A stretch of 54,991 bases of DNA from the NCBI GenBank assembly GCA_045650025.1, contig JAZRQR010000067.1, positions 1 through 54,991 of the forward strand, in the 5' to 3' direction. This document shows, piece by piece, positions 14,018 to 48,964 of the stretch. Both the position numbers and the translations under genes were made by a program. Each line of letters begins with the position of its first letter. Positions within the stretch are counted from its first letter, which is position 1. The notes under the pieces were generated by a model. It had not been told where the DNA came from, ran no database searches, and was given only the letters and a program-made list of their open reading frames with translations. Origin of the DNA: Eubacteriales bacterium. GTDB taxonomy: Bacteria; Bacillota; Clostridia; Oscillospirales; CAG-272.

Positions 14018-15475
14018 TCAATCGCCCTGGTAAACTTCCAGGATCTTGCTGATCTCCTTATTCATGGTAGCTTCCTTATTTCTCTTGATCACGCTTGCAA
14101 CGGATGCATTCTTGGTGTCAAGGCAGGTCTGGAACAGGGTTGCACAAGCATAGCCCTTGCTGAAGAAGTGCGCGTAGCCGAAGTCGAATACGCGGTTACG
14201 GATGATGATGTCTACCATCTCAGCAGACTCTGCATCGCGAACGTTCTTGGACTTTGCAACCTTATCGTACAGGGTATCGGTTACCATGTAGTAAGAGGAG
14301 GATGCAAGTGCCTCCAGCATGTAGCCAACGTAAGGAAGTCTGTCCGACTTGATGCTCTTGGGTACTACAACAACCGAAGCCGCACCGTTTACAAAGCTCA
14401 TGTAGCTTTCCTGGTTGGTGTCATACTTGGGCTGGGGCATTACGCCATACTCGTCTGCCATATCCTTAAAGCCGTACTCAGAGTTTGCAATGGTGGTCAG
14501 CGAGCAAGCGGTGAACAGCGCTCTGCCCTCGGTAAATACCGTGTAGGGCTTTGCAGCCAGGCTGACGTCGGTGACGTAGAGCGAGTTGTTGGTCATGAAA
14601 ATGTTGTATACCTTGTCGTAAACGTTCTGGATCTTATCCTGGTCTACGCTGTATACGGGGTAGTTGTCGGAATCCTTGGTAAAGAAGGTTGCGCCCGAGC
14701 CAAAGAAGAAGTTGAACGGACCTGCGAGGTGCCAGCTGGTCATGCCGTAGTAGTCATCTCTGAAGTCCAGCTTACCGTCACCGTTGAGGTCCTTGGTCTG
14801 GTCCTTGGTCAGCTTTGCCAGCTCGTCCAGCGTCCATACGCCCTCTCTTGCAAGGTCGTAGGGGTAGTCCAGAGACTGGTTATCAAACTCAGTCTTGTTG
14901 AATGCCAGGCATGCGGAATACAGCATGGTGTGCGGAACAAGGTCGCCCACGGTCAGGAACTGGTGATCGCCAATGGTAAAGCCTTCCTTAGCGTCCTGGT
15001 CCCACCAGATCTGCTCGAAATCCACGTAATCCAGCTCGGAAAGGTCGATCAGAAGGTTGTTGACCGCCAGGTTGGTAGCCGAGTTTACCATGTGCTGGTA
15101 AACGATATCATATTCACCGTTACCGGATCCAACGTCGGTTGCCACCTTCTGACCAAGGAAGGTGTACTCGGTCTCCAGAATGGTGGTGATGGTGATGCCG
15201 TAGGTGGCTTCCAGTCTATCGTTTCTTCTGTAAAGTGCGTCCTCAAGGGGATCGGTAGACGCTTCGTCGCTGCCTGCGTCCATTTCGCGGTTGACCAGCA
15301 GCGTCAGGGTGTTGCCCGAAAACTCATCGGTGGGCTCCAGCGCAGAGCTGATCCAATTCTTCTCCTCAGTAGAGGCAGTGGTGTCTTCCGCATCGTTTGC
15401 ATCGTTGTTTGCACAACCTGCAAGCACGGAAAGCAGCATCAGACCGCACAGCAGCATGACAAGTACTTTCTTCAT
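14018..15475 (-). CDS. Extracellular solute-binding lipoprotein (carbohydrate ABC transporter SBP-like), orphan
   Basis: Start moved from 15682 to ATG 15475 (AAGGAG RBS), giving MKKVLVMLLCGLMLLSVLAGC with a lipobox. Motifs GVWTLDEL, DLNGDGKLD..DYYG, YGVMPQPKYD. No permease or ATPase gene nearby. Confidence 0.85.
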   Translation of the reverse strand: MKKVLVMLLCGLMLLSVLAGCANNDANDAEDTTASTEEKNWISSALEPTDEFSGNTLTLLVNREMDAGSDEASTDPLEDALYRRNDRLEATYGITITTILETEYTFLGQKVATDVGSGNGEYDIVYQHMVNSATNLAVNNLLIDLSELDYVDFEQIWWDQDAKEGFTIGDHQFLTVGDLVPHTMLYSACLAFNKTEFDNQSLDYPYDLAREGVWTLDELAKLTKDQTKDLNGDGKLDFRDDYYGMTSWHLAGPFNFFFGSGATFFTKDSDNYPVYSVDQDKIQNVYDKVYNIFMTNNSLYVTDVSLAAKPYTVFTEGRALFTACSLTTIANSEYGFKDMADEYGVMPQPKYDTNQESYMSFVNGAASVVVVPKSIKSDRLPYVGYMLEALASSSYYMVTDTLYDKVAKSKNVRDAESAEMVDIIIRNRVFDFGYAHFFSKGYACATLFQTCLDTKNASVASVIKRNKEATMNKEISKILEVYQGD

Positions 15476-43969: not shown

Positions 43970-44416
43970 TTATTGCTCGATAACCAAAGACGAAAGAGTA
44001 ATACTGACAATGTAGCCACCGCCAACCACAACTGCCTTGCTCTCACCAATCTCGGATTGCAGCTGCACGTTTACCAGCTGCTCAAACGACTCTGCGTCCG
44101 CCGTGGTGTCAAAGCCGAGTACCCAGTACTTAACCCATTCACCGGTTTGCTCGTTGGCCTCGCCGCCAATCAAGGCTGCGGTTACCTTGCCTTGAAGTGT
44201 CATTTCATACTCTTGTGTCAAAGCCGCCTGAATATCTGCCAAACCCTGCTCGTCCGCGCGCTCAAAGGGCGCGTCGTTCTCTTCAAGCTGAGAAGCAACT
44301 GCATCTACGGCAGTAACCGAAACCACCTCACCGATCTTCTGCTCTACCTGCGCGCAGGATGCAAAGCAAGCGGTGCAAATGAACAGTAAAAGTGCAAAAG
44401 TCAAAATTCTTTTCAT
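43970..44416 (-). CDS. Hypothetical lipoprotein (paralog 1)
   Basis: Start moved to ATG 44416 (GGAGG RBS): MKRILTFALLLFICTACFASC lipobox. Confidence 0.75.
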   Translation of the reverse strand: MKRILTFALLLFICTACFASCAQVEQKIGEVVSVTAVDAVASQLEENDAPFERADEQGLADIQAALTQEYEMTLQGKVTAALIGGEANEQTGEWVKYWVLGFDTTADAESFEQLVNVQLQSEIGESKAVVVGGGYIVSITLSSLVIEQ

Positions 44417-44448
44417 AGTAATATCCTCCAATATGATCATTCAAATAC

Positions 44449-44874
44449 TCAACCGCGCAGAACCGTGATAATGCGACCTTTTACGGTCACCTTAACCACC
44501 GTGCCGATGTCATCGCCTTGTGATTCGTACACCTTGGCAATGGCTTTGGCATCCGCCTTGTCGGTCACGGCAATCACCGTGGTAAAGAACATCTTGCCCG
44601 ATTCAGCATCCGGAGAGCTGTATTCCAGCACGCCAACGACCTCGCCCTCCAAAAGCACGCCATCACCCGAAGCCAGCGACTCGGCAAAGGCAATGACCTC
44701 CGCCTCATCCGCGCGAAGCACCACGTACCCTTTTTCCTCCAGCTGTGCCTGCAGCTTATCCAGCTCGGCAATGGCGGAATTCTTATTCGCGGAGCGCATC
44801 ACGTCAGCACAAGACGTCAGCATCAAGGCGCTAAGCGCAAGCAAAAACAGCGATAATAGCACTTTTTTCTTCAT
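44449..44874 (-). CDS. Hypothetical lipoprotein (paralog 2)
   Basis: Start moved from 45078 to ATG 44874 (GGGAGG RBS): MKKKVLLSLFLLALSALMLTSC lipobox. Confidence 0.75.
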   Translation of the reverse strand: MKKKVLLSLFLLALSALMLTSCADVMRSANKNSAIAELDKLQAQLEEKGYVVLRADEAEVIAFAESLASGDGVLLEGEVVGVLEYSSPDAESGKMFFTTVIAVTDKADAKAIAKVYESQGDDIGTVVKVTVKGRIITVLRG

Positions 44875-44917
44875 TTCAGACCTCCCGACCGACGTTTTTG
44901 CGTCGATCCACCCGATA

Positions 44918-44946
44918 ATTATAGCACATTTATCCAACTCTGTCAA
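44918..44946 (-). promoter_or_regulatory. Consensus sigma-A promoter for the lipoprotein pair
   Basis: Minus strand TTGACA-17nt-TATAAT with TGn. Confidence 0.75.
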
Positions 44947-45015
44947 GCAAACTGCGTCGATAATTGGGCAAGTGCAAAAAAATAAAAAATTTTCTGACTT
45001 TTTTTCAAAAAGGGG

Positions 45016-45044
45016 TTGCATTTTTAAAAATGTTGTGCTATAAT
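45016..45044 (+). promoter_or_regulatory. Sigma-A promoter of tRNA-Glu
   Basis: TTGCAT-17nt-TATAAT with TGn and an AT-rich upstream region. Confidence 0.75.
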
Positions 45045-45064
45045 AAGCAAGTCGCAAACGACAA

Positions 45065-45139
45065 GGCCCGTTGGTCAAGCGGTCAAGACGCTAGCCTCTC
45101 ACGCTGGAAACATGGGTTCGATTCCCGTACGGGTCACCA
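45065..45139 (+). tRNA. tRNA-Glu (anticodon CTC)
   Basis: Cloverleaf: acceptor GGCCCGT/ACGGGTC, D-arm GTC/GAC, anticodon arm CTAGC-CTCTCAC-GCTGG, T-arm ATGGG-TTCGATT-CCCGT, encoded CCA. Confidence 0.97.
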
Positions 45140-45180
45140 AAAAAAGAACAGGAGCACAGAAGTGCTCCTGTTCTTTTTTT
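45140..45180 (+). terminator. Intrinsic terminator after tRNA-Glu
   Basis: AAGAACAGGAGCAC-AGAA-GTGCTCCTGTTCTT followed by a T-tract. Confidence 0.8.
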
Positions 45181-45669
45181 GCCGACCCGACGCGAACCCA
45201 TTTCGTGCGCAACGCGCACGATCGGGTTCGCATTTGCCGCGAAGCCGTCGGAAAGCGACTCGCGCAGCGAGGCATTTTCCAGCGGCAAGCGTGCAAATAT
45301 TCGCCGTAGGCGAAATTCCCGTGCTTTTTGTGTTGCTGCCCCATACGAGGAATCTCACCCGGCGAGTCGAGCCGTAGGCTCGCCTCGCTGGGTTCGCATT
45401 CGCCGCTCGTAGATCGGAGAGCGACTCGCGCAGCGAGGCATTCTCCAGGCGGAGAGCGCGCGAATTCTCGCCAACGGCGAGATTCCCGTGTTTATTTGGC
45501 AGGCACCTCGAATGAGGTGCCTGTTCTTTTTCTGTCGACCCGACGCGAACCCATTTCGTGCGCAAAGCGCACGATTGGGTTCGCATTTGCCGCGAAGCCG
45601 TCTGGGAGCTTGCTCACAAGCGGCAAGCGTTCAAATATTCGCCGTAGGCGAAATTCCCGTACGGGTCAC
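45181..45669 (+). repeat. Tandem array of three structured units, each a tRNA T-arm split by a multi-hairpin insert, ending in a 17-bp duplicate of the tRNA 3' end
   Basis: GGGTTCG-[insert]-ATTCCCGT at 45224-45322, 45390-45489 and 45577-45660. ATTCCCGTACGGGTCAC at 45653-45669 equals 45121-45137. Confidence 0.85.
45500..45531 (+). terminator. Terminator-like hairpin inside the repeat array
   Basis: CAGGCACCTC-GAAT-GAGGTGCCTG followed by TTCTTTTT. Same 3' flank as the post-tRNA terminator. Confidence 0.65.
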
Positions 45670-45762
45670 GGCAGGGACAAGGTTGCTTCCCACAGAATAA
45701 AATCCACACTCCACGGGAGCCCTCGCTCCCCTTTTTCTTTCACATTTTTTACAAAATCCCGC

Positions 45763-45791
45763 TTGCATTTTTCGCTTTGTTCAGTTATAAT
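45763..45791 (+). promoter_or_regulatory. Sigma-A promoter for the GH106 gene
   Basis: TTGCAT-17nt-TATAAT, preceded by a small hairpin plus T-tract at 45715-45740. Confidence 0.65.
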
Positions 45792-45850
45792 AAATACAAC
45801 ACCATCCCCTAATCACCACCCCGCGCAGGCGCGGAGAACAGGAGACGCAT

Positions 45851-48800
45851 ATGATTTACGAAAAGAACACAAAGCAACCCAAGCTGGATAAAGCCCTTTT
45901 CCAAAACCCGACTGCGGAATACCGCGGCACGCCATTCTGGGCATGGAACTGCGAGCTGGAAAAGGACGAGCTACTGCGCCAGATCGACATTTTTAAACAG
46001 ATGGGTCTGGGCGGCTTCCATATGCATTGCCGTGCAGGCATGTCCACCACATATCTTTCGGACGAATTTATGGACTTGGTCAAGGCGTGCACCGATCACG
46101 CCGAGAAAAACGAGATGCTTTCCTGGCTGTATGACGAGGACAAGTGGCCCTCCGGCTTTGCAGGCGGCTACGTGACCAAGAACCCCGCCTTCCGCCAAAG
46201 ATTCCTTGCCTTTACCTGCAATCCCGGCTACGTTACAACCGAGCACTCGGTTTTGATTGGCAAATTTGACGTGGTGCTGGGCAAGGACAAGTGCTTGAAA
46301 TCCTACCGCAAGGTGCAGGACGGTGACCCCATTGAGGGCACACTGTGGACGGTATGGCGTGAGATCTCCGGCAACTCCCCTTGGTACAACAACCAATCCT
46401 ACGTAGACACGCTCAATAAGGCTGCCATTGAAAAGTTTATTGAAGTGACGCACGAGCGTTACTACCAAGCCGTTGGCGACCGCTTTGGCACAGTAGTGCC
46501 CGCCATCTTTACCGACGAGCCGCAGTTCATGCGCAAGGGCACGCTTGCCTTTGCCGACAGCAAGCAGACCGTGCACCTGCCCTGGACTGATGACCTGGAG
46601 GACACCTTCCGCGCGGCATACGGTGAATCGCTGGTGGATCACTTGCCCGAGCTGCTGTGGGATCTGCCGGGCGGCGAGGTTTCCCTGACCCGCTACCACT
46701 ACCACGACCACGTTTCCGACCGCTTTGCCAAGGCGTTTGCCGACACCTGCGGCGACTGGTGTGACGCGCACGGCATTGCGCTGACCGGCCACATGATGGA
46801 AGAACCCACGTTGCACTCGCAGACCGCCGCCATTGGCGACTGCATGCGCTCCTACCGCGGCTTTGGCATTCCCGGTATTGATATGCTTTGCGCATCCTTT
46901 GAGTTCACCACCGCCAAGCAGTGTCAATCCGCCGTACACCAATACGGCAAGCCCGGCATGATGAGCGAGCTTTACGGTGTGACCGGCTGGGATTTCGACT
47001 TCCGCGGCCACAAGCTGCACGGTGACTGGCAGGCAGCACTGGGCGTGACCGTGCGTGTCCACCACCTTTCCTGGGTCTCCATGAAGGGCACGGCAAAGCG
47101 CGACTACCCCGCATCCATGTCCTATCAGTCCTCCTGGTACAAGCAGTACGCATACGTGGAGGATCACTTTGGCAGAGTGAACACCGCGCTTACCCGCGGC
47201 ACGCCGCTTGTTAAGGTGGGCGTGGTGCATCCCGTAGAGAGCTATTGGCTGCATTGGGGCCCCAACGAGCAGACCCAGCTGATCCGCGACAAGCTGGACG
47301 GCAACTTTATGAACGTGACCGACTGGCTGCTGCGCGGCAACATTGACTTCAACTACATCTGCGAATCCACCCTGCCCGATCTGTGTCCCGCAGGCGGCGC
47401 TCCCCTGCAGGTAGGCAAGATGGCTTACGACGTGGTCATCGTGCCCGAATGCGAGACGCTGCGCTCGACCACGCTGGATCGCCTGGAGGCATTCCTGGAC
47501 GCAGGCGGCAAGCTGGTATTTATGGGAGACGCGCCCAAGTACGAGGACGCCAAGACCTCGGAACGCGGCAAGGCACTCTTTGCACGCGCAAAGCAGATCG
47601 CTTTCTCGCGCGGCGCGCTGCTGGAAGAGCTGTACGACGACCGCACGGTGGAGATCCGCGAGTTTTCGGGTGCTTACACCACCAACCTGATCCACCAGAT
47701 CAGACGTGATACCGACGGTCTTTGGCTGTTTATCTCGCACGCAAACGAGCCCTACAACAAGCATATTTCCCGCTCGCAGGGCATTCACGTTTACGTCAAG
47801 GGCAAATACAAGGCGCAGCTGTGGGATACCATCACGGGCGAGATCAAGCCTGTGCGCTACAGCAACCGCTCGGGCGGCAAGACGCACATCATTATGAATC
47901 TGCACGATTACGACTCCGCGTTGCTTTATCTGGAGGACACCGACGAGGACGCAGGCTACGAGCCCGAGGCTGCCGCTGCACCCATGCCCATTGGCATTCA
48001 GCGCATGACTGTTGGCTATGATGCCTGGGCGGAGCAAAACGCAGCACCCGATCCCGTTGCCAACATTCCCTACACCGTGCCCTACTCGCTCTCCGAGCCC
48101 AACGCCCTGCTGCTTGACATGGCGAAATACGCGCTGGATGACGAGCCGCTCTCGGCTACCGAGGAGATTTTGCGCATTGACGCCGCCGTGCGCCGCCGTC
48201 TCGGCTTCCCTGCCGGCAAGGCACAGCCCTGGGTCATTCCCGCAAAGCCCGCAGAGCATACCGTGACGCTGGAATACACCATCTACAGCGAAATTGATTA
48301 CGCGAACCCCTACCTTGCGCTGGAGGACGCGGATATTGCCACCATCCTCTGGAACGGCTCACCCGTCAAAGCACAGCCCGAGGGCTATTACGTGGATAAA
48401 TCCATTCAAAAGGTGGCGCTTCCCGCACTTTGCAAGGGCGAGAACGTGCTGCGCGTGACCATTCCGTTTGCAGAGCGCTCCAATTGCGAGGCAATGTACC
48501 TGCTGGGTGCGTTTGGCGTGCGCGTGACCGGCAAGCTGTTGACCGTGACCGCCCTGCCCGAAACGCTCGGATTCTCCGATCTGACCTACCAGGGTCTGCC
48601 CTTCTACGGCGGCGAGGTCACCTATAAGATCCCCGTTTCCTGCGATACGGACTGGAACGCCGTGATCAAGGTGCCGCACTTTGACGCCGTGGTCAACTCG
48701 GTAGAGGTGGACGGCGAGCAACGCGCCGTGGTAGCTTACCCGCCTTACGTTGCCGATCTTGGCACACTATGCGCAGGCGCACACACCATTGGCCTGACTA

Positions 48801-48964
48801 CCTACATCTCGCGCCGCAACTGCTTTGGAGACGTGCACAACGCCGACGAAAAGCACCGCTGGCAGGGGCCTGTCGCTTGGGTAACCTCGGGGGATGCCTG
48901 GACATACGAATACCGTCTGCGCCGCACCGGTATTCTCACCACACCCGAGATCTATAGAAAGTAA
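45851..48964 (+). CDS. Glycoside hydrolase, GH106 (alpha-L-rhamnosidase)-like, cytoplasmic
   Basis: 1037 aa, no signal peptide. Motifs RGTPFWAWN, WLYDEDKWPSGFAGG, IFTDEPQ, PGIDML, MSELYG, AKRDYP. Confidence 0.8.
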   Translation: MIYEKNTKQPKLDKALFQNPTAEYRGTPFWAWNCELEKDELLRQIDIFKQMGLGGFHMHCRAGMSTTYLSDEFMDLVKACTDHAEKNEMLSWLYDEDKWPSGFAGGYVTKNPAFRQRFLAFTCNPGYVTTEHSVLIGKFDVVLGKDKCLKSYRKVQDGDPIEGTLWTVWREISGNSPWYNNQSYVDTLNKAAIEKFIEVTHERYYQAVGDRFGTVVPAIFTDEPQFMRKGTLAFADSKQTVHLPWTDDLEDTFRAAYGESLVDHLPELLWDLPGGEVSLTRYHYHDHVSDRFAKAFADTCGDWCDAHGIALTGHMMEEPTLHSQTAAIGDCMRSYRGFGIPGIDMLCASFEFTTAKQCQSAVHQYGKPGMMSELYGVTGWDFDFRGHKLHGDWQAALGVTVRVHHLSWVSMKGTAKRDYPASMSYQSSWYKQYAYVEDHFGRVNTALTRGTPLVKVGVVHPVESYWLHWGPNEQTQLIRDKLDGNFMNVTDWLLRGNIDFNYICESTLPDLCPAGGAPLQVGKMAYDVVIVPECETLRSTTLDRLEAFLDAGGKLVFMGDAPKYEDAKTSERGKALFARAKQIAFSRGALLEELYDDRTVEIREFSGAYTTNLIHQIRRDTDGLWLFISHANEPYNKHISRSQGIHVYVKGKYKAQLWDTITGEIKPVRYSNRSGGKTHIIMNLHDYDSALLYLEDTDEDAGYEPEAAAAPMPIGIQRMTVGYDAWAEQNAAPDPVANIPYTVPYSLSEPNALLLDMAKYALDDEPLSATEEILRIDAAVRRRLGFPAGKAQPWVIPAKPAEHTVTLEYTIYSEIDYANPYLALEDADIATILWNGSPVKAQPEGYYVDKSIQKVALPALCKGENVLRVTIPFAERSNCEAMYLLGAFGVRVTGKLLTVTALPETLGFSDLTYQGLPFYGGEVTYKIPVSCDTDWNAVIKVPHFDAVVNSVEVDGEQRAVVAYPPYVADLGTLCAGAHTIGLTTYISRRNCFGDVHNADEKHRWQGPVAWVTSGDAWTYEYRLRRTGILTTPEIYRK

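Follow-up and report, generated by a model that had tools for sequence, protein, structure and literature searches.

A tandem array of hairpin-rich non-coding units behind tRNA-Glu(CTC) in a Eubacteriales bacterium: a candidate mobile element at the T-loop of tRNA and tmRNA genes

The stretch of DNA analysed here (the window) comprises 54,991 nt from a Eubacteriales bacterium (GenBank assembly GCA_045650025.1, contig JAZRQR010000067.1, forward strand). A single transfer RNA (tRNA) gene was called in it by ARAGORN, the intact tRNA-Glu(CTC) at 45065–45139 (61.1 bits with the Rfam tRNA model). Directly 3' of this gene lies an array (45140–45669) of three hairpin-rich non-coding units of ~150 nt each, within which no tRNA was called; all of its features described below are on the + strand. 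Each unit consists of the T-arm and 3' end of tRNA-Glu, cut between G57 and A58 by a conserved hairpin of 55–70 nt (the rod) and by a small hairpin directly after it. The interruption of the T-arm copy measures 84, 85 and 69 nt in units 1, 2 and 3, respectively. On the 5' side of each split copy stand a degenerate inverted copy of the tRNA 3' end and then a variable hairpin (V). The three array copies were recovered by a repeat search of the window (repeat families D2–D4).

The tRNA gene is followed by H1 (45140–45181), a terminator-like hairpin with an A-run and a T-run. Together with the tRNA 3' end and the inverted copy behind it, H1 forms a palindrome (inverted repeat I1) with 28-nt arms (45130–45157 and 45162–45189) that are 93% complementary. 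Unit 1 begins with the degenerate reverse-complement copy of the acceptor 3' strand and T-arm 5' half (GACCCGACGCGAACCC, 45184–45199, by sequence reading), followed by V (TCGTGCGC-AAC-GCGCACGA, 45203–45221; inverted repeat I3 and fold) and by GGGTTCG (45224–45230; repeat D4 and flank statistics), which is the T-stem 5' strand plus TTCG and ends at the equivalent of G57. The rod (45231–45298; fold, alignment and covariation) is a long hairpin with GAAG/CAAG internal loops and an extended tip. It is succeeded by the small hairpin TTCGCC-GTA-GGCGAA (45300–45314; inverted repeat, fold and helix 4 of the covariation test) and by ATTCCCGT (45315–45322; repeat D2), a copy of tRNA positions 58–65 that contains the 3' part of the T-loop and the T-stem 3' strand.

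In unit 2 an upstream hairpin of other sequence (CCCGGCGAG...CTCGCTGGG, 45357–45392; fold) overlaps the T-stem copy. GGGTTCG (45390–45396; D4) is followed by a rod of the AGATC/AGGCG internal-loop type with an extended tip (45397–45465; fold and alignment), 99% identical to a copy on another contig of the same genome (C90), by the small hairpin CTCGCC-AAC-GGCGAG (45467–45481; inverted repeats I5 and I6 and fold) and by ATTCCCGT (45482–45489; D2). Unit 3 stands behind H3 (45498–45535), a terminator-like hairpin with a T-run of the type found after tRNA-Glu(TTC) on contigs C90 and C106. It contains the inverted copy GACCCGACGCGAACCC (45537–45552; repeat D1, 92% to unit 1), V (45556–45574; I3 and fold), GGGTTCG (45577–45583; D4), a rod in the short-tip form that is commonest in the family (45584–45636; fold and alignment) and the small hairpin TTCGCC-GTA-GGCGAA (45638–45652; inverted repeat and fold). 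The array ends with ATTCCCGTACGGGTCAC (45653–45669; repeat D5), in which the part of the gene from A58 (45121) is repeated: it is a 17-nt direct repeat of tRNA positions 58–74 (45121–45137) with 100% identity. Each unit is placed behind a terminator-like hairpin, and a simple scan of the + strand gave no promoter-like site inside the array.

A preliminary description of this DNA covered the span 45231–45481, which opens with the first rod and closes with the small hairpin of unit 2; the true array is longer. It had proposed that compensatory base changes between units reveal a conserved folded single strand, RNA or single-stranded DNA (ssDNA), and not neutral slippage. The changes that it listed are present: the outer stem reads CATTTGCC...GTGCAAAT in the rod of unit 1 and CATTCGCC...GCGCGAAT in that of unit 2, the inner stem GGAAA/TTTCC and GGAGA/TCTCC, respectively, and the small hairpins differ as given above. 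The common core GCGACTCGCGCAGCGAGGCATT was likewise found in units 1 and 2, unit 3 carries the shorter tip GGGAGC-TTGC-TCAC in its place, and the upstream hairpins (45203–45221 and ~45357–45392) differ in sequence and both pair. The description overlooked that its 'GGGT half' and the ATTCCCGT tail each represent one half of the T-arm of the neighbouring tRNA, which changes the identity of the object. Three units alone are insufficient to prove selection; an alignment of 127 copies suffices.

Folding of the + strand was compared with dinucleotide shuffles and gave z values of −5.6, −4.1 and −5.7 for units 1–3, none of 200 shuffles reaching the value of the unit; folding of the − strand is good too (z −3.8, −3.8 and −6.2). 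Alignment A1 was built from 127 distinct copies among the 144 elements described below, 17 being left out for incomplete coverage, locus ends or identity. RNAalifold predicted 19 pairs on it, 17 of them with compensatory changes; one pair, for example, is U-A in 63 copies, A-U in 56, C-G in three and G-C in two, and another is C-G in 64 and G-C in 55. When a 26-pair structure was tested on the same copies, 23 of the 26 pairs were found to change on both sides. Paired cells amounted to 89.4% against 73.4 ± 0.5% in shuffled controls, and double-change cells to 589 against 207 ± 21 (reached in 0 of 500 shuffles, a count and not a probability), with a maximum of 156 in slid-partner controls. The covarying positions are N in the search pattern or lie outside it. 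By helix, pairing was 96.8 and 96.2% in the rod helices and 90.6% in the small hairpin, and the T-stem pairs are retained in 70% of cells. The V hairpin is unalignable yet general (127 distinct 48-nt segments, median z −2.9, 72% below −2). The fold of the units is under selection. Covariation in a wider set of homologs, proposed earlier as a check, was thus seen with both RNAalifold and pair-count controls, and supports a conserved folded single strand over neutral slippage.

The comparison of G-U with A-C mismatches, likewise proposed earlier as a means of finding the functional strand, gave G.T in 48 (1.8%) and A.C in 23 of 2652 cells and pointed to folding of the + strand. Purine-purine mismatches on this strand exceed pyrimidine-pyrimidine mismatches (109 versus 25), so the + strand is the folding strand whether the molecule is RNA or DNA. 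GCGAAGC, a DNA mini-hairpin of great stability, was counted 50 times on the + strand of 141 units against 17 times for its complement. The loops of the small hairpins are mostly of 3 nt and end in A, and in the internal loop of the rod two CGNAG strands face each other, with the motif seen as C-GNA-G in the small hairpin.

Six copies are present in the genome that holds the window (G000): the three in the window and one each on contigs C90, C33 and C123, beside tRNA-Glu(TTC), tRNA-Gln (by reading) and a 3' end resembling that of a transfer-messenger RNA (tmRNA), respectively. The flanks of the latter three copies match their own adjacent gene, not tRNA-Glu. In the family, 35 of the 401 genomes, G000 among them, were matched by a BLAST search with unit 2, and within the genus all 15 other genomes contained matches within the unit part of the query. 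A pattern scan in which each species was represented by a single genome returned at least 121 stretches, from which 80 loci with 86 distinct matches were taken. L091, L113, L126 and L136 were chance matches without the rest of the rod; the remaining loci belong to metagenome-assembled genomes titled Oscillospiraceae, Clostridia, Eubacteriales, Ruminococcus and, in one case, Lachnospiraceae, many of them from ruminant guts. A hidden Markov model search of these loci and of the genome itself yielded 150 hits, reduced to 144 elements after duplicated loci and one chance hit had been dropped. With a covariance model, matches were obtained in six of 151 genomes of an order-wide sample, those from families f1, f23 and f27 being strong and those from f8 and f19 weak; the four matches outside f1 all have the expected layout beside a tRNA. 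In a class-wide sample the model matched 0 of 150 other genomes, a result limited by strict filters and by the sample. The distribution is patchy, with 16 of 97 genera in the family and up to five families in the order sample.

No Rfam 15 family covered the units at gathering score in window positions 44000–46500 and 12 element loci (47.6 kb). The matches above gathering were tRNAs and an unrelated Gut-1 RNA in locus L197 (G461:C28, 577–647, − strand; 71.4 bits, gathering 50), which lies ~1 kb from a unit; sub-threshold matches of microRNA models fell on a terminator hairpin. RF00005 (window and 12 loci) and ARAGORN (window) returned true tRNAs only and did not call the units. Full-text literature searches, judged from listings and abstracts, found nothing on such an element. 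Metatranscriptome contig sets X16, X17 and X19 cover the tRNA only and X15 (probably DNA) part of unit 2; at their low depth they are uninformative on transcription.

The elements are tied to tRNA genes. A tRNA or tmRNA gene on the same strand ends at most 700 nt upstream in 73 of the 144, with the identities Glu, Gln, Cys, Met, Pro, Val, Arg, Ser, Gly, Thr, Tyr and tmRNA. Thirteen lie beside a tRNA-Ser gene on the opposite strand, 33 within 300 nt of a contig or locus edge and 25 beside none; away from contig edges, 86 of 111 elements have such a neighbour. In 68 elements the 5-nt stem copy is 90% identical to the T-stem of the neighbour, against 54 ± 2% with shuffled partners, and the 3' copy 52% against 37 ± 1%. 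The inverted copy begins with TGG, the complement of CCA, and matches the reverse complement of the last 14 nt of the tRNA with a mean score of 10.1 of 14, compared with 7.9 ± 0.1 for other tRNA species; a score of at least 12 was reached in 14 of 52 units (control mean 0.39). The junction consensus from 63 distinct intact sites, partly fixed by the method used to locate the sites, is (G/A)(G/C)TTCG↓A(T/A)TCC (the arrow marks the junction). The opposite-strand class copies CCGCTTCG↓ATACCTCTGC, the reverse strand of the 5' part of tRNA-Ser, which is T-loop-like in sequence and in which no T-stem is possible. At one such site (L198, G445:C42) a minimal form was observed: of the rod, just the outer stem and a 3-nt loop are left (CATTCGCC-AAA-GGCGAAT) before the small hairpin. 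On either side stands a perfect direct repeat of 40 nt, in which the 5' end of the tRNA and its upstream flank are contained.

The integrated layout reads, in its 5' part, intact gene ...TTCG-ATNCC-R1(-CCA), H, the degenerate inverted copy of the last ~27 nt of the gene and V and, in its 3' part, (GAAT), the 5-nt stem copy plus TTCG, rod, small hairpin and ATNCC-R2. It follows from this layout that the element replaces the 3' end of the gene, together with the terminator, by its own copy, the old end being left behind the element. Across tRNA targets H, the rod and the small hairpin form a constant scaffold, and the target-matching pieces vary with the target. A filled and an empty site could be compared for a tRNA-Gln gene: genome G427 carries an element there, and its congeners G553, G554 and G555 share the flanks but have the site empty, with the native terminator directly after CCA. 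The filled site differs by ~165 nt and a direct repeat of ~21 nt, the native terminator sits behind the 3' tRNA copy of the element, and hairpin H is unrelated to that terminator. Among 124 tRNA or tmRNA genes with at least 200 nt downstream, a set enriched for element loci, 58 split T-arm duplicates were found and two contiguous ones, of which one is a real second tRNA.

Six scaffold pairs (rod plus small hairpin) are at least 93% identical at different tRNA species, including Glu and reverse-strand Ser, and near-identical H hairpins occur with Gln-type and Cys-type flanks (L090 and L215 versus L048). A constant scaffold has therefore been moved between targets, its target-matching parts being changed. 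Modules are also mixed within G000, where the C90 copy combines the 5' module of units 1 and 3 with the rod of unit 2. Arrays of two or more units were found on 28 of 111 locus-strands, with a spacing mostly of 150–260 nt, and units bracket small cargo genes at L132, L050 and L216. In the last of these (G241) the order is tRNA-Gln, unit, 3 kb of cargo, H and second unit; the second unit, with the flank downstream of it, has its counterpart in the first unit of G130, where the cargo is absent. The cargo (G241:C20, 2400–5350) encodes a 293-aa small serine recombinase (Resolvase plus helix-turn-helix, HTH), an HNH endonuclease and a 264-aa protein of no family, and also holds an inverted fragment of the T-arm and acceptor of another tRNA. 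With the recombinase as query, no homologue was found in the genome that holds the window. As a separate observation, the motif CATCT(A/T)T..GTCA(A/G)(A/C)AC stands just before H in L040, L050, L057/L216, L071 and L132, five elements without an adjacent tRNA, ~107–111 nt upstream of the start of the unit match and directly after the stop codon of a small open reading frame (ORF) on the same strand; it may be the end of a cassette-like cargo.

As the best reading, to which we give about an even chance, we propose that the array consists of three tandem copies of a non-coding, non-autonomous, retargetable mobile DNA element of ~150–220 nt that folds as a single strand. We assign the same probability to a new, structure-dependent kind of element, which targets the T-loop of tRNA and tmRNA genes and carries both a split and an inverted copy of its target. 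The site of insertion would be the step TTCG↓A(T/A)TCC, that is G57↓A58 of the T-loop, or the look-alike CCGCTTCG↓ATACC on the reverse strand of tRNA-Ser. The scaffold would act as a folded single strand, most probably ssDNA of the + strand, in which the inverted and direct target copies pair as a mimic of the duplex target and the rod and small hairpin protrude at the insertion point. A putative enzyme acting in trans, a recombinase or nuclease, would cut and join at this point, and repeated insertion or unequal exchange would give rise to tandem arrays, also bracketing foreign cargo DNA. A bolder form of the proposal, which we consider rather unlikely, is a DNA-only retargetable insertion device. 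Its folded strand would present the target mimic to a host or helper enzyme, with the rod and small hairpin marking where to cut, and its target segments would be re-copied from the new site at each jump, so that any tRNA T-loop on either strand could be used non-lethally and the site chosen by template without a guide RNA or a protein of its own.

Several points weigh against a mobile DNA element. The comparison of filled and empty sites is one case only. The search pattern that supplied roughly two thirds of the alignment rows prescribes both the tip and the internal loops, so that conservation there is partly by construction, and related genomes in the alignment are not independent. The inverted copy is decayed in about half of the units (at least 10 of 14 in only 29 of 52) and the 3' target copy is often just 8–10 nt, so that in many cases the mimic proposed for the target is imperfect. 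At the rod tip, 112 of the 127 rows have a G-closed CTCG or CTTG loop, a type typical of RNA. We know of no precedent for the rewriting of target-matching segments at a new tRNA. No excised or circular form and no enzyme were found. The viral contigs were without the element (two pattern matches, both by chance, lay inside long ORFs with the rest of the rod missing), and in blastn a typical unit matched none of 50,697 phage and 72,556 plasmid records; no carrier vehicle was thus found in these sets.

A linked enzyme was also looked for. The units have no ORF of their own and no integrase within 2.5 kb, and clustering of 1194 flanking ORFs (±2.5 kb, 111 loci) gave no recurrent protein, the clusters present in more than six loci being ORFs that cross units; this lack of a linked protein counts for the mobile-element reading. 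The candidate genes of the own genome weigh against it. PF01548 (IS110-type) had no match over the cut-off in the own genome, which is 93% complete; an IS110 bridge- or seek-RNA element was rejected on this result and for want of a linked ORF. The six tyrosine recombinase genes of this genome all lie on contigs other than the unit-bearing ones. Its two Y1_Tnp genes (C2:2702–3511 and C152:45830–46600), IS200/RAYT-like, of ~235 aa and with a C-terminal HTH-like tail, are flanked by a hairpin repeat of their own, of the GACACAGGGGACAGTCCCC.../GACACAGGGGACAGTCCCCTGTGTC type, and nhmmer detected no unit on C2 or C152. Copies of the GACACAGGGGACAGTCCCCTGTGTC-type repeat were observed elsewhere, at L036 (G020:C103), to replace the 5' half of a rod. 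Two small GIY-YIG genes (C165:4618–4836 and C94:22817–23038; L218 and L219), ~93 aa, single-domain and Ssn-like, are flanked not by units but by composite repeats that start with GTCATCCTGAGCGGAG and the inverse of which overlaps the upstream regions of the genes; by their sequence pattern they are presumably members of cd10448. Ssn and RAYT proteins are therefore unsupported as partners, their genes being flanked by other repeats.

The main rival holds that a unit is the gene for a tRNA-like small RNA, in which an acceptor-like stem, made by the inverted copy and the 3' copy, and a T-arm carry two extra helices at the 57/58 gap; the RNA would be processed or bound by tRNA-handling proteins and the DNA would spread by duplication beside tRNA genes. 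We regard it as doubtful. The strong covariation fits it, as do the mismatch types, which favour the strand that is the tRNA sense strand at T-loop sites, the retained T-stem pairs and the unit of G427, which ends in a complete tRNA 3' end with CCA and is then followed by the native terminator. On the side of RNA also stand the G-C-closed CTCG/CTTG tetraloop tip, the possible tRNA-like outline of the flanks and the insertion at the 57/58 gap, which we take to be the intercalation gap of the T-loop motif. The 13 elements that copy the reverse strand of tRNA-Ser, where a T-stem is impossible, would make tRNA mimicry at the RNA level pointless, a terminator-like hairpin immediately precedes the units and no promoter-like site was found within the array, many units lack the 3' acceptor copy, and neither ARAGORN nor the Rfam tRNA model calls the units. 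The reverse tRNA-Ser class and the terminator-like hairpins, together with the scarcity of wobble pairs, the enrichment in GCGAAGC, the 3-nt loops ending in A and the facing CGNAG strands of the rod, argue for DNA.

Two further explanations separate the tRNA copies from movement of a unit as a whole. According to one, which is quite unlikely in our judgement, two things are superimposed: attR-type partial-tRNA scars of integrase islands and a later REP- or MITE-like (miniature inverted-repeat transposable element) hairpin insertion into these dead copies, hits in live tRNA genes being lethal so that the hairpin survives in dead T-loop copies. The swapping of rods relative to the 5' modules, the tRNA-linked islands at these loci (such as the G241 cargo with its serine recombinase and HNH genes between two units) and the resemblance of the 17-nt direct repeat in the window to a classical att repeat agree with this. 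It is opposed by the rarity of rod-free contiguous T-arm duplicates (two against 58 split, in the enriched set of 124 genes), by the filled and empty sites, which differ by a whole unit at once, and by the inverted target copy and H, which are foreign to attR scars. According to the other, which we hold very unlikely, the units are immobile cis-elements, elaborate terminator or insulator structures, generated on the spot by fold-back and by tandem duplication and maintained because they serve termination or the 3' processing of the tRNA. The A- and T-runs of the H hairpins and the regular spacing would suit such a role, and the direct-inverted-direct order is that expected from template switching at a hairpin; near-identical scaffolds at different tRNA species in different genomes, the patchy distribution and the empty sites of congeners, with a normal terminator from which H differs, speak against it. 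The sharing of scaffolds across tRNA species suggests a scaffold tree that is incongruent with the host and tRNA trees. Two more specific origins were also considered. Formation of H by fold-back at the native terminator was rejected, as H differs and the native terminator lies behind the element in G427, and formation of the inverted copy by reverse transcription from the CCA end of a mature tRNA was set aside, since the layout is no different in the reverse tRNA-Ser class, which lacks a CCA end.

The candidate mobile element was compared with known systems. Sublocation classes of integration within tRNA and tmRNA genes were reportedly distinguished by Williams in 2002. Like tyrosine-integrase islands and prophages, which integrate into the T-loop or the 3' end of such genes and are bounded by attL/attR repeats of part of the tRNA, the element keeps the gene intact through a replacement 3' end and leaves the old end as a direct repeat (17 nt in the window, ~21 nt in G427), tRNAs and tmRNA are targeted, and arrays and cargo accumulate at the site. 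Unlike them, it measures 150–220 nt without an ORF or a nearby integrase, its T-arm copy is split by ~70–90 nt of covarying hairpins with no contiguous core, there is an extra inverted target copy, and one scaffold serves at least 13 tRNA identities as well as tmRNA. Folded single-strand recombination sites are known in the integron attC and the attP(+) hairpin of CTX phage. The element resembles these in that the structure is kept by compensatory changes and not by sequence, one strand seems to be active and tandem units bracket cargo; it differs in being anchored on a tRNA gene, not on attI or dif, and in carrying target copies. No RYYYAAC/GTTRRRY cores were seen by eye at the rod ends in A1, where no formal motif search was made and IntI was not searched for. 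In the IS200/IS605 family (IS608), the target is chosen by base pairing of a guide segment in the element end. The likeness lies in a DNA element with a short target-matching segment, so that specificity can shift with the segment; in the present case no TnpA gene is linked, the target-matching segments are longer, of 5–27 nt, and occur in both orientations and the element restores the disrupted gene.

A likeness to tRNA-like RNAs and the T-loop motif lies in the potential of the flanks to pair as an acceptor-like stem and a T-stem, with the insert at the 57/58 gap, but the D and anticodon arms are absent, tRNA finders fail and the reverse tRNA-Ser class is without a T-stem. The ends of the units (ATNCC... 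and ...GGCGAA) are, unlike those of a MITE, not inverted repeats, and the direct repeats range from 8 to ~41 nt with no fixed length. REP/BIME repeats are associated with RAYT Y1 transposases. The nearest published concept is the Ssn/NTS system, in which an oriented hairpin repeat is cut as ssDNA by a small nuclease (PMC11893778). The SRM repeats of that system are hairpins of 20–50 nt that flank a gene for a single-domain GIY-YIG protein of ~94 aa (PMC11893778); the small GIY-YIG genes of the present genome are flanked by repeats other than the units. With NTS/SRM-Ssn and REP/BIME-RAYT the family shares multiple copies, an intergenic position and oriented hairpins, and its ATTC...GAAT-type stems are in the style of NTS/dRS3. 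The units are 3–5 times longer than SRM and REP and are tied to one target sequence. By analogy with the Ssn and RAYT systems, a partner protein that acts on ssDNA hairpins is plausible.

If the element is what we propose, selfish DNA would be using tRNA genes in a new manner: a protein-free element selected for its fold, which restores the gene, carries both orientations of the target and has switched among at least 13 tRNA identities, tmRNA and a look-alike site. It might mark sites of island build-up, would account for frequent contig breaks behind tRNA genes in gut Clostridia and would point to an enzyme that recognizes TTCG↓A in a structured context, a possible ssDNA tool. Even as RNA, the units would constitute an uncatalogued, strongly covarying family with helices inserted in the T-loop.

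Some minor observations were made at other loci and contigs. Many unit matches fall in the ~200 bases at either end of a contig (e.g. G093:C76:18–115, G359:C204:18–174 and G406:C69:4–104), and the elements appear to break short-read assemblies behind tRNA genes. A variable island upstream of a Cys-type unit with no tRNA in view (L217, G264:C45, 500–6700) carries genes for RHS-repeat, type I restriction-modification specificity, GNAT, GIY-YIG (159 aa, with an N-terminal hydrophobic stretch) and XRE-type HTH proteins. On contig C192 of G000 a contiguous T-arm duplicate lies 498 nt downstream of tRNA-Pro(GGG), on a contig that also has a tyrosine recombinase gene (14838–15392); this duplicate has the appearance of a usual att repeat.

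The region upstream of the GH106-like gene of the window (45851–48964) is rearranged within the genus, as seen on comparing window positions 45065–45850 with L183 (G408:C50), L185 (G270:C9) and L186 (G161:C63). In G270 and G161 tRNA-Glu(CTC) is inverted and no units are present at that region, and G093 has the same inverted match; G408 has tRNA-Met, tRNA-Glu(TTC) and one unit there. The arrangement suggests exchange between tRNA-Glu loci or units.

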